From assembly GCF_011045215.1 (NCBI RefSeq), contig NZ_CP049201.1: DNA of 64,000 nt; one strand, given 5' to 3'. The notes beneath the pieces were generated by a model. It made no database searches and was not told where the DNA came from. It saw nothing but the letters and a program-made list of their open reading frames with translations. Below, one piece after another: positions 42,700 to 45,600 of the stretch (positions are counted from its first letter, which is position 1; every line of letters begins with the position of its first letter). The stretch is from Escherichia coli (lineage in GTDB: Bacteria > Pseudomonadota > Gammaproteobacteria > Enterobacterales > Enterobacteriaceae). The translations under genes and the position numbers were made by a program.

Positions 42700-45600
42700 A
42701 TGAACAGGACCAGTCCCTATTATTTTCGCCGCTCAGTACTTTCCTTATTGATATCTGCCTTAATATATGCCCAGCCTGGAGAGGCTGCTTTCACATCAAT
42801 CGTTACTGGTATCGTAAATGGTGAAACTGTTGATGGTGATCAAATAGTAGATGAACGTGGTACAACTAATGATATTCATATCATTAATCACGGCCGCCAG
42901 ACTGTAATTGGTGGGATGTCTAATGGAAGTATTATTGAAGTTGGTGGACAACAAGATGTAGCAAGCCATAATGATTATCAGGGGCAAGCTAATAATACAA
43001 TCCTTCATGGGGGTGCACAGGTAATTTATAATGGCGGGAATTCTACCGGTACGATAATCGAGAGTGGTCATCAGCAAGTTTATAACGGTGGTACCAGCAA
43101 TGGCACGATAATCGAGAGTGGCAATCAGTACGTTTATAAAGATGGTACCAGCAATGGCACGATAATTAAGAATGGTAATTCAGTCGTCGAAGGAGGGAGG
43201 GCGAACGGGACTGTCATCGATGGTGGTAAACAAACAGTAACAACTCAGGGATATGTTGACGGTACGACGATAAATAAGTCCGGTTATCAGGACATCATGC
43301 AAGGAAGTCAGGCAAAGAATACGACAATAGATGGGGGGCGGCAGTATGTGGACTCGAGTTTTGTAGAAACCACCATCATCAAAAATGGGGGCGATCAAAG
43401 AGCATATAAGAGCCATGCGCTGAACACTACGATAGATGGAGGTCGACAGTATATTGATTCAAGTACTGCACAAATAACCACCATTAAAAATGGAGGAACG
43501 CAACAATTAATTGCCAGCCAGGCTATGATCACCTCGATTGAAGGGGGAATGCAGACGCTGGAAAGTTCGTCAATGGCGTACAATACCACGATCTATTCTG
43601 GCGGGAAGCAAATTGTTGATAACACCAGCACCTCGGATGTTATTGAAGTTTATTCCGGTGGCGTGCTTGATGTTAGTGGTGGTACGGCAACAAATGTTAC
43701 CCAGCACGATGGTGCAATTTTAAAAACAAACACTAACGGTACGACGGTGAGCGGTACGAATAGTGAAGGTGCATTCTCCATCCACAATCACGTGGCAGAC
43801 AATGTGTTGCTGGAAAACGGTGGTCATTTAGACATAAACGCATATGGTTCGGCAAACAAGACGATTATTAAAGATAAAGGAACAATGTCAGTTTTAACCA
43901 ATGCTAAAGCTGATGCGACCCGAATAGATAATGGCGGGGTTATGGATGTTGCCGGAAACGCGACCAATACCATAATTAATGGTGGTACACAGAATATTAA
44001 TAATCATGGTATTGCCACGGGCACTAATATCAACAGTGGAACGCAAAATATCAAGAGCGGCGGGAAAGCTGACACGACAAATATATCCTCCGGGAGCCGG
44101 CAGATTGTTGAGAAAGATGGTACGGCAACTGGCAGCAATATTAGCGCTGGAGGCTCGCTGATTGTCTATACCGGCGGTATTGCACATGGGGTTAACCAGG
44201 AGACGGGCAGTGCTTTAGTTGCCAACACGGGTGCAGGGACTGATATCGAAGGATACAACAAGCTCTCTCACTTCACTATTACCGGAGGGGAGGCTAATTA
44301 TGTTGTGCTGGAAAATACCGGCGAACTGACGGTAGTGGCTAAAACCTCGGCGAAAAATACTACCATTGATGCTGGCGGTAAGCTGATTGTCCAGAAGGAG
44401 GCTAAAACAGATAGCACCAGACTTAATAATGGCGGCGTTCTGGAGGTTCAGGACGGTGGTGAGGCTAAGCATGTTGAGCAACAATCCGGCGGCGCATTAA
44501 TTGCTTCCACGACCTCCGGAACACTTATCGAAGGAACCAACAGTTATGGTGATGCTTTCTACATCAGGAATTCAGAAGCTAAAAATGTAGTGCTGGAAAA
44601 CGCTGGCTCATTAACCGTCGTCACTGGTTCCCGGGCAGTTGACACGATTATTAATGCCAACGGCAAAATGGATGTTTATGGAAAAGATGTTGGCACTGTA
44701 CTCAATAGTGCTGGCACCCAAACAATATATGCCAGTGCCACTTCTGATAAAGCAAATATCAAAGGTGGCAAGCAAACGGTATATGGTTTAGCCACTGAAG
44801 CAAATATCGAAAGTGGTGAACAAATTGTTGATGGTGGGTCAACAGAGAAAACACACATCAATGGTGGCACGCAAACCGTTCAGAATTATGGTAAGGCAAT
44901 CAATACCGATATCGTCTCTGGCCTACAACAAATTATGGCAAACGGGACAGCGGAAGGTTCCATTATTAATGGGGGTTCACAGGTAGTTAATGAGGGCGGT
45001 CTGGCTGAAAACTCGGTGCTTAATGACGGCGGCACACTCGATGTGCGGGAGAAAGGCAGCGCAACGGGGATACAGCAGAGTAGCCAGGGCGCTTTGGTTG
45101 CAACCACCAGGGCGACGCGGGTCACAGGAACACGCGCGGATGGCGTCGCGTTCAGCATCGAGCAGGGTGCGGCGAACAATATCCTGCTGGCAAATGGCTG
45201 CGTGTTAACCGTGGAGTCAGACACCACTTCCGCCAAAACACAGGTCAATACGGGCGGGCAGGAGATCGTCAAAACAAAAGCCACTGCGACAGGCACGACG
45301 CTCACCGGCGGCGAACAAATCGTCGAGGGTGTGGCGAATGAGACAACGATTAACGACGGTGGAATACAAACAGTTTCGGCTAACGGAGAGGCAATAAAAA
45401 CAACGATCAATGAAGGCGGTACGCTGACAGTTAACGATAATGGCAAAGCAACAGATATCGTCCAGAACAGCGGTGCCGCTCTCCAGACGAGCACGGCTAA
45501 CGGTATTGAAATCAGCGGTACTCACCAGTACGGCACTTTTTCCATTTCCGGCAATTTAGCGACCAATGCGTTGCTGGAAAATGGCGGTAATTTATTGGTA

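Follow-up and report, generated by a model that had tools for sequence, protein, structure and literature searches.

A tandem repeat in the passenger of the Escherichia coli autotransporter YpjA as the probable relic of one old duplication of a beta-helix rung

Autotransporter passengers of the Ag43/AIDA-I/TibA kind consist of imperfect repeats of ~19 aa (PMC3835316). [quoted passage not shown] Two adhesins of this kind are encoded together with a heptosyltransferase, in the operons aah-aidA and tibC-tibA (PMC3835316). YpjA, listed in reviews as a biofilm-forming Group 4 autotransporter, is predicted to form a beta-helix of which no structure has been published (PMC9289746; PMC12547504), and its mechanism is given as unknown (PMC9289746).

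Here we describe the ypjA allele in a stretch of 64,000 nucleotides from E. coli (contig NZ_CP049201.1; “the window”). A preliminary description of this DNA had placed near-identical tandem repeats of ~57 bp in the passenger domain of ypjA and proposed that recombination among them could vary the length of the adhesin between strains. Both the gene and the location of the repeat in the passenger are borne out (Table 1). The coding sequence is enclosed in an ORF (42571–47433) of which M44 is the RefSeq-annotated start, and Pfam recognizes AIDA (11 stretches; PF16168, E 3.4e-149), Pertactin, and Autotransporter beta-domain matches in that ORF; the strand-loop-strand repeats of NCBIfam likewise occupy 11 stretches (TIGR04415, E 1.2e-65). 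The passenger has the repeats of about 19 aa that define the AIDA type, with a local period of 18 aa. YpjA belongs to the classical (type Va) autotransporters and is an adhesin of the same kind as AIDA-I, Ag43, and TibA, with a putative signal peptide (a hydrophobic helix at residues 10–23 in the AlphaFold2 model, followed by continuous short strands), a beta-helical passenger with a pertactin-like end, and a C-terminal barrel. It is orthologous to YpjA/EhaD of K-12 and O157, as seen from the chromosomal position, the common flanks (upstream ypjCB, encoding DUF5507/DUF5508, and then a recombinase remnant; downstream a SIR2-like protein), and near-identity outside the N-terminus, residues 330–1577 being 97–100% identical to K-12-type YpjA. 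Full-length matches are annotated as ypjA in 2,417 genomes.

Table 1. Positions in the window of ypjA, its domains, and its repeated or variable segments.
Feature	Position	Strand	Remarks
ypjA coding sequence	42700-47433	+	YpjA/EhaD, an adhesin-like autotransporter of 1577 aa; stop codon included
Hypervariable N-terminal (distal tip) passenger cassette	~42750-43600	+	boundaries approximate; ~0.85 kb
Rung unit 1, QVIYNGGNSTGTIIESGH	43018-43071	+	aa 107-124; counterpart of unit A of two-unit alleles (40-42/54 matches)
Rung unit 2, QQVYNGGTSNGTIIESGN	43072-43125	+	aa 125-142; extra, chimeric unit, missing in common alleles
Rung unit 3, QYVYKDGTSNGTIIKNGN	43126-43179	+	aa 143-160; counterpart of unit B of two-unit alleles (43-45/54 matches)
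54-bp duplication, copy 1	43051-43104	+	unit 1 tail and unit 2 head; TRF period 54
54-bp duplication, copy 2	43105-43158	+	unit 2 tail and unit 3 head
Second rung-number polymorphism	43318-43527	+	tandem pair of 105-bp units (35 aa and two rungs each) at 43318-43422 and 43423-43527
Pertactin-like (autochaperone-type) domain, passenger end	46027-46395	+	PF03212, E 2.6e-45; ORF residues 1153-1275
Proline-rich linker	46405-46494	+	12-bp (PNPD/PKPD) repeats; 2-4 aa indels between alleles
Outer-membrane beta-barrel translocator domain	46645-47364	+	PF03797, E 4.5e-46; ORF residues 1359-1598; TIGR01414, E 7e-100

The peptide quoted in the preliminary description is correct and corresponds to residues 112–160 of YpjA (43033–43179). 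The tandem repetition is real at the DNA level but recurs every 54 bp (18 codons) rather than every ~57 bp. Three units span 43018–43179 with pairwise identities of 63–85% (38/54 bases for units 1 and 2, 46/54 for units 2 and 3, and 34/54 for units 1 and 3). “Near-identical” is an apt term for one pair of segments that is offset from these units, the two copies of the duplication, which share 48/54 bases (89%), but not for the units in the register first proposed, which share 34–46/54. In 300 codon shuffles of ypjA, the best score at lag 54 averaged 28.2 (sd 1.3) and did not exceed 33/54. Tandem Repeats Finder reports 43051–43166 with a period of 54, 2.1 copies, 90% matches, and a score of 190, and the longest perfect stretch common to the copies, read from the unit sequences, is ~17–18 bp. 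The six differences between the copies are one synonymous and five non-synonymous, with ~11 synonymous sites. Positive selection was rejected as an interpretation: dN/dS is above 1 in the copies only, and counts of five versus one are too small to mean anything. On the other strand, a terminator-like hairpin at 43160–43145 proved to be merely the GGTACC...GGCAC palindrome within the repeat, promoter-like matches did not rise above their shuffled frequency, and no antisense ORF of at least 100 aa overlaps the repeat.

The period has a structural counterpart in an AlphaFold2 model of YpjA built on a shallow alignment of 11 sequences. Here, pLDDT is 97–98 over residues 100–230, and there are three strands per 18 aa, with equivalent strands at residues 114–116, 132–134, 150–152, and 167–169. 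According to this model, each 18-aa unit is one rung of the beta-helix. Because 54 bp is exactly one 18-residue turn, the product of a 54-bp event would be both in frame and in structural register.

Unit 2 is composite. Its head (nt 1–33) matches the head of unit 3 at 29/33 positions and the heads of unit B from two-unit alleles at 27–28/33, as against 19/33 for the head of unit 1. Its tail (nt 34–54), on the other hand, matches the tail of unit 1 at 19/21 positions and unit-A tails at 20–21/21, as against 13–14/21 for unit-B tails. Judged from these matches, unit 2 is a B-head/A-tail chimera, the footprint of unequal in-register recombination or slippage. This part of the original proposal is supported, the chimera being the expected product of recombination among units, whereas ongoing variation between strains is not. 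We consider it likely that a rung was duplicated in register once, long ago, and that the duplication is now inherited together with a diverged N-terminal cassette without ongoing change in the repeat. A single unequal exchange in register, or a single slip in replication, between the ancestral neighbors A and B would have duplicated a 54-bp segment (A tail plus B head) to give A, the chimera, and B. The stalk would thereby have become one rung longer, and the parts N-terminal to the insertion would have been displaced by one turn. By the general geometry of beta-helices, this displacement would be ~0.5 nm.

The age of this event is indicated by a paralogue. An intact autotransporter gene encoding 1558 aa is found at the ycgI locus, between ymgG/ymgI and minE, where K-12 has a 345-bp pseudogene remnant; an initial assignment of this locus to ycgV was rejected, the passenger of K-12 YcgV being unrelated. 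At the DNA level, the paralogue is 95–97% identical to ypjA over the coding sequence and ~200 bp in front of it, and it has the same three-unit arrangement (93–94% over 318 bp), in which units correspond one to one. It differs in its chromosomal locus and in the absence of 17 aa of a second duplication (see below). Units at the same position in the window and in the paralogue share 49–52/54 bases, more than the 46/54 that the window's own units 2 and 3 have in common. The duplication is old: its copies have diverged to 89% identity, and each has its counterpart in the related cassette of the paralogue.

The number of units was compared across alleles, as the preliminary description had suggested, and was found not to be identical everywhere. 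Three units occur in the window allele, PapM-32-1, and OkiPb01695, and all remaining sampled entries, those of K-12, O157, and E30 type included, have two; protein alignments have an 18-aa gap at unit 2 in alleles L002, L003, and L004. With a probe for the window junction, the three-unit form was found in 21 of 5,426 complete genomes, twice in ypjA and 19 times at the ycgI locus, and ~100 matches sampled from the whole range of remaining identity classes are shorter by 54 bp. For each of the 19 ycgI-locus entries, the same record has another match at a different place, which is taken to be a two-unit ypjA from its identity class of ~77%. Of the 16 protein clusters matched by the N-terminal 340 aa, most are fragments with truncations or frameshifts; they include additional cassette types with two units and a truncated one with three (P0003). 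Unit number has two states. Neither varies within its own N-terminal cassette, and these cassettes are deeply diverged; the three-unit form is always found within one of them. Length differences between strains come with the inherited cassette and do not arise recurrently. The passenger-length variation proposed in the preliminary description is therefore real in that alleles differ by one 54-bp unit at exactly this site, but it is not the result of recurrent recombination.

Two other readings are less likely. Conceivably, the units recombine or slip often, so that the passenger changes in length within strains as well as between them, as at a VNTR or contingency locus that serves antigenic or functional variation. 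The alleles are indeed one unit apart at precisely this site, the chimeric middle unit testifies to at least one such event, and further indels of whole rungs lie nearby. However, there are only 2.1 copies, of 89% identity, with a longest perfect stretch of ~17–18 bp; only two states exist, the three-unit state is limited to 21 genomes of one cassette lineage, and all 21 copies align without any change in length. Synthetic junctions that would mark a gain in K-12-type or in E30-type alleles had no match in the collection, and a probe for a one-unit, K-12-type loss had no match covering at least 80% among 1,155 matching genomes. These junction-only probes, run with a strict E-value limit, detect alleles within roughly 90% of the probe in complete RefSeq genomes, and the window junction, as a positive control, recovered the 21 genomes expected and no others. 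(A longer synthetic query, three K-12-type units between flanks of 100 bp, was discarded as uninformative: two-unit genomes cover it in full by two overlapping pieces and so do not rank apart from true three-unit alleles.) Within this survey, the common alleles gave no sign of the recurrent, independent gains and losses of a contingency locus. Nor could such changes act as an on/off switch, because each unit is a whole number of codons. Active repeat-number variation is accordingly very improbable. We give still less credence to the notion that the units resemble each other by convergence or purifying selection on the rung consensus (GTxIxxG / QxVYxGG), with no duplication at all. A loose consensus is common to all AIDA-type rungs, as reflected in the 11 stretches recognized by both Pfam and TIGR04415. 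However, neighboring rungs elsewhere in the YpjA helix share just 15–24/54 bases (28–44%), and the peak starting at 43051 is the only one in the whole gene to reach 36/54 at lag 54. Furthermore, the identity of the copies extends to synonymous positions (only one synonymous difference over ~11 synonymous sites), and exactly 54 bp are missing in other alleles; these two observations refute the reading.

A more serious competitor concerns the direction of the event. Three units could be ancestral and the two-unit alleles derived from one 54-bp deletion by reciprocal recombination, with the same stability at present. The chimera pattern is symmetrical for gain and loss, and the allele tree is essentially two-sided and lacks an outgroup, such that one event on the connecting branch fits both directions and is equally parsimonious. 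Copy 2 matches the single copy of E30- and K-12-type alleles (48–49/54 positions) as well as it matches copy 1 (48/54). Two scans of species-representative genomes gave only E. coli-like contigs, and hence no outgroup for the direction. The two loci from these scans lie in a MAG labelled Collinsella. On the other side, the two-unit form is found in at least five diverged cassette types (database fragments counted) and the three-unit form in one clade, and the 89% pair looks younger than the other adjacent rungs, given their low identity. An ancestral three-unit state seems to us possible but rather unlikely, and we infer that the event was a gain.

The cassette that carries the repeat is set off sharply from the remaining gene. 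DNA identity to K-12-type ypjA is 98–100% upstream, 67–82% at 42796–43596, and 96–100% beyond, with abrupt breaks at ~42750 and ~43600, and dS is 0.64–0.70 in the cassette versus 0.06–0.10 over the remaining gene. For the cassette as a whole, dN/dS is ~0.3, and its identity to the ycgI-locus paralogue is 83–94%. The cassette would be transferred by homologous recombination in the conserved sequence on either side of it, also from one of the two loci, ypjA and ycgI, to the other, a route that we infer. The extra rung of the 54-bp duplication is not the only length difference in this region. At the second rung-number polymorphism, the two 105-bp units are 70/105 identical; the common alleles are without 35 aa here and the ycgI-locus paralogue without 17 aa, and the full form occurs in two genomes only. 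In terms of rungs, the window allele has two extra at residues 242–276, and alleles vary by one or two. One speculative reading, to which we assign a low probability, is that the distal ~300 residues are an exchangeable tip cassette maintained as an ancient balanced polymorphism with gene conversion between ypjA and ycgI, in which insertions of whole rungs retune the register of binding or self-recognition. The extra rung may affect adhesion. If the tip-cassette reading were true, the tip would decide which cells or surfaces stick together.

In conclusion, an eye-catching tandem repeat in an adhesin is probably the fossil of a single in-register rung duplication and not a variable-number repeat. 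The gene and the kind of repeat are already known and the indel is old and fixed, so the significance beyond annotation is small; the case is a caution that repeats in beta-helical autotransporters need not be devices for length variation. For E. coli adhesin typing or the engineering of YpjA for surface display, the rare 1577-aa allele and the intact ycgI-locus paralogue may be of use, as may the N-terminal cassette with its roughly ten-fold excess of synonymous divergence. Compared with YpjA/EhaD of K-12 and O157:H7, the window allele has the same annotation and the same locus, which follows ypjCB and the recombinase remnant, but its first ~300 residues are only 65–80% identical and it is longer (1577 versus 1524–1528 aa) by one rung at residues 125–142 and two at residues 242–276. 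Ag43 and TibA are the best matches of YpjA both by sequence (closest solved structures, E 1e-27 to 1e-35) and by fold (Foldseek top matches 7KOH, 4KH3, 7KO9, and 7KOB for Ag43 and 4Q1Q for TibA), and they share with it the arrangement of one repeat per rung. Identity over the aligned structure is, however, ~21–29%, the period in YpjA is 18 aa, and YpjA scores far below the NCBIfam equivalog cut-offs for Ag43 (NF033177, 350.9 versus 1200 bits) and AIDA-I (NF033176, 279.6 versus 1200). The heptosyltransferase gene that forms an operon with the adhesin gene in glycosylated SAATs of the AIDA-I/TibA type does not adjoin ypjA, although such an enzyme could still act from another place in the genome, and no glycosyltransferase was found among the 10 flanking ORFs scanned.

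The tandem repeat in ypjA is real, but its period is 54 bp (18 codons) and not the 57 bp given in the preliminary description. Tandem Repeats Finder reports 43051-43166 with a period of 54, 2.1 copies, 90% matches and a score of 190, and three units can be laid out in the original register (see table), with 38/54 identical positions between units 1 and 2, 46/54 between units 2 and 3 and 34/54 between units 1 and 3. The most similar pair is offset from these units: 43051-43104 (copy 1) and 43105-43158 (copy 2) agree at 48/54. In codon shuffles of the gene (n=300), the best 54-nt window over lags 45-69 averaged 28.2 (sd 1.3) with a maximum of 33, and no lag-54 position elsewhere in ypjA reaches 36/54. 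What stands of the original observation is a repeat of three 54-bp units, in which the term near-identical suits that one pair (89%) and none of the others. Nothing of note overlaps the repeat on the opposite strand.

Coordinates of ypjA, its repeat units, its neighbours and the ycgI locus (window positions unless another sequence is named)
Feature	Position	Strand	Remarks
tRNA, CAT anticodon, ileY-like	39588-39663		upstream of ypjA
ypjCB	40415-41764		upstream of ypjA; DUF5507/DUF5508
ORF enclosing the repeat	42571-47433	+	4.9 kb
Unit 1	43018-43071		54 bp, original register
Unit 2	43072-43125		54 bp, original register
Unit 3	43126-43179		54 bp, original register
SIR2-like protein	48112-49464	-	
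Ankyrin-repeat protein	50353-51357	-	
DUF6387	52103-52957	+	
IS21 istA/istB	56152-58591	-	
IS4/Tn5-type transposase	58682-60097	+	
Relaxase	61821-63050	-	
Intact ycgI-locus autotransporter	L005 5758-10434 (NZ_CP027579.1)		1558 aa, nineteen complete genomes
K-12 ycgI pseudogene	L011 6065-6408		last ~345 bp of the autotransporter gene

From the RefSeq-annotated start in syntenic genomes, ypjA begins at 42700 and encodes 1577 aa. The ORF protein carries eleven AIDA repeat stretches, one Pertactin domain and one Autotransporter beta-domain (Pfam), or eleven TIGR04415 strand-loop-strand repeats and the TIGR01414 barrel (NCBIfam). Megablast with the full gene gave a query coverage of at least 80% in 2,417 of 5,426 complete E. 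coli genomes, the matched genes being named 'ypjA: adhesin-like autotransporter YpjA/EhaD'. Because of these domains and annotations, the gene name and the assignment to the passenger domain were correct, and the peptide quoted earlier is aa 112-160 of YpjA (43033-43179). The protein tested positive as a type Va autotransporter, as a YpjA orthologue and for an AIDA-type repeat passenger; it falls below the NCBIfam equivalog cut-offs for both Ag43 and AIDA-I, ypjA has no adjacent heptosyltransferase gene, and its repeat does not classify as hypervariable.

Two further features of the gene were seen. At residue ~834 (~45200), a lone Gly-to-Cys change gives ANGCVLTV in place of ANGGVLTV; the residue lies in a rung turn, and the region around it is otherwise conserved. 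All six homologues compared (five alleles of ypjA plus the paralogue at the ycgI locus) have Gly, with ADGGVLTV in L002, a common two-unit allele. The most length-variable part of ypjA is the proline-rich linker joining passenger to barrel (46405-46494), which is made of 12-bp PNPD/PKPD repeats and differs in steps of 2-4 residues among alleles; full-gene spans elsewhere vary by 6-bp steps.

Each 54-bp unit is predicted to encode one beta-helix rung. In an AlphaFold2 model of YpjA residues 1-420 (mean pLDDT 86.7; 97-98 across residues 100-230), short strands follow in an unbroken run, three per 18-residue period, with equivalent strands at 114-116, 132-134, 150-152 and 167-169. Foldseek against the PDB matched the model to Ag43 variants (7KOH, 4KH3, 7KO9, 7KOB) and TibA (4Q1Q) with E values of 1e-11 to 1e-14, the next hits being unrelated beta-helix enzymes, and the Ag43 variants and TibA are the sole sequence matches to YpjA among solved structures. 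Natural variants of Ag43 likewise vary by whole rungs (69 aa; four rungs versus seven; PMC8993888).

When window YpjA was aligned with four other ypjA alleles, the K-12-type (1526 aa), O157-like (1528 aa) and E30-type (1524 aa) proteins had exactly 18 residues fewer at the repeat. Their two units, A and B, are equivalent to units 1 and 3, and the extra unit 2 is composite. Its head (nt 1-33) agrees with that of unit 3 at 29/33 and with unit B heads at 27-28/33, against only 19-20/33 for unit 1 or unit A heads; its tail (nt 34-54) agrees with that of unit 1 at 19/21 and with unit A tails at 20-21/21, against only 13-14/21 for unit B tails. The order A, B-head plus A-tail, B is exactly what an unequal, in-register crossover or slippage between neighbouring units A and B would produce, the reciprocal product of a crossover being a one-unit allele. 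Since the duplicated segment would be one full turn, both reading frame and helical register would be kept.

By blastn, the 321-bp segment 42940-43260 has matches in 3,025 genomes. Identity was 100% in two, both in ypjA, namely PapM-32-1 (Gambian baboon) and OkiPb01695 (Okinawan cattle), and nineteen matched at 93-94% in one full-length piece; in the remaining ~100 rows sampled from the top of the ranking and by even steps down, K-12 derivatives and O157:H7 included, the record span was 54 bp below the query span. Junction-only probes (E <= 1e-25) gave exhaustive counts. The window junction (43051-43158) was found in exactly 21 genomes (2 in ypjA at 100%, 19 at 93-94%), and synthetic three-unit junctions of K-12-type or E30-type units matched nothing. 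A synthetic one-unit K-12-type junction matched 1,155 genomes, none at >=80% coverage, the listed rows all being 71-nt partial hits as expected of two-unit alleles. Fragments in a large protein collection added further N-terminal types, all two-unit save one truncated three-unit type. Thus there are two states, and nothing points to repeated gains or losses. As proposed earlier, repeat number does differ among ypjA alleles: three units in the window, PapM-32-1 and OkiPb01695, two in the other genomes sampled.

A second rung-number polymorphism lies at 43318-43527, where two tandem 105-bp units (35 aa, two rungs) are identical at 70/105. Here the K-12, O157 and E30 types are 35 aa shorter and the ycgI-locus paralogue 17 aa shorter; the full form occurs only in PapM-32-1 and OkiPb01695. 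In two database sequences, L008 (55-1380) and protein P0010, long in-frame deletions bring distant rungs together; L008, for instance, passes from ...GISTGTII (~aa 120, inside unit 1) to the KDKGTMSVL region (~aa 390; NDKGTMSVL there). Their sources are a Collinsella-labelled MAG, whose DNA is evidently E. coli-like, and one short Logan contig; either assembly artefacts or genuinely collapsed alleles could account for them.

The repeat sits in a diverged N-terminal cassette of ~0.85 kb (~42750-43600). Sliding identity to K-12-type ypjA reveals a mosaic with sharp breaks: 98-100% over the 400 bp upstream, 67-82% across 42796-43596 and 96-100% downstream of ~43600. By the Nei-Gojobori method, dS is 0.64-0.70 for aa 20-300 (dN/dS ~0.3) and 0.06-0.10 for the rest of ypjA (dN/dS 0.13-0.16), which points to a tip module that is either ancient or imported.

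In the 19 genomes with 93-94% matches, the module resides in a different gene, for an 'AIDA repeat-containing protein', located between ymgG/ymgI and minE. K-12 has the ycgI pseudogene at this position, the segment matching L005 5729-10089 (4.4 kb) being deleted; ycgV was ruled out as the second locus, as the passenger of K-12 YcgV is unrelated. Identity between the paralogue and ypjA is 95-97% from ~200 bp 5´ of the start codon through the stop codon, and 83-94% inside the cassette. Corresponding units of the two loci agree at 49-52/54, more than units 2 and 3 do within the window, which places the duplication before the split of the two cassettes, with no later homogenisation of the units. 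The three-unit state is an old, stable character of a single cassette lineage, and its presence at both loci implies that ypjA and the ycgI locus probably exchanged sequence at some time. The earlier proposal that recombination varies passenger length between strains is upheld in part: the one-unit difference exists and appears to stem from inter-unit recombination, but as an old, lineage-fixed indel borne on the cassette and not as active variation.

As to direction, gain of a unit is favoured, because the two-unit state is spread over at least five diverged cassette types whereas the three-unit state forms one clade, and because the 89% pair looks young beside neighbouring rungs outside the repeat, which have only 15-24/54 bases in common. 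A single ancestral deletion from three units to two is the less likely but serious rival: copy 2 resembles the one copy in E30-type and K-12-type alleles (48-49/54) as closely as it resembles copy 1, and the search for an outgroup found none.

Upstream of ypjA, the tRNA gene and ypjCB are accompanied by a recombinase remnant, a layout also present in PapM-32-1. In strains E30 and BR1220, ssrA follows ~160 bp past ypjA; no tmRNA gene was found in the window, which downstream of ypjA (within 47434-64000) has a mobile island instead, with the genes listed in the table from the SIR2-like protein to the relaxase. At 6534-7534, a tRNA-Ser(GCT) gene is followed by four tandem tRNA-Arg(ACG) genes spaced 276 bp apart, presumably the ordinary E. 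coli serV-argVYZQ cluster.

Earlier work has already described ypjA and its family, this type of repeat and allelic differences of whole rungs. What may be new in detail is the rare allele of 1577 aa, the intact paralogue at the ycgI locus with the same tip, and a synonymous divergence that is raised roughly ten-fold in the tip cassette; all three are unsurprising for a surface adhesin. No glycosyltransferase gene flanks window ypjA, in contrast to aah-aidA and tibC-tibA, where one flanks the adhesin gene (PMC3835316). A recent classification puts YpjA, for which a beta-helix is predicted and no structure has been published, in its 'Group 4' beside self-associating autotransporters (PMC9289746), which have an imperfectly repeated 19-aa sequence in common (PMC3835316).
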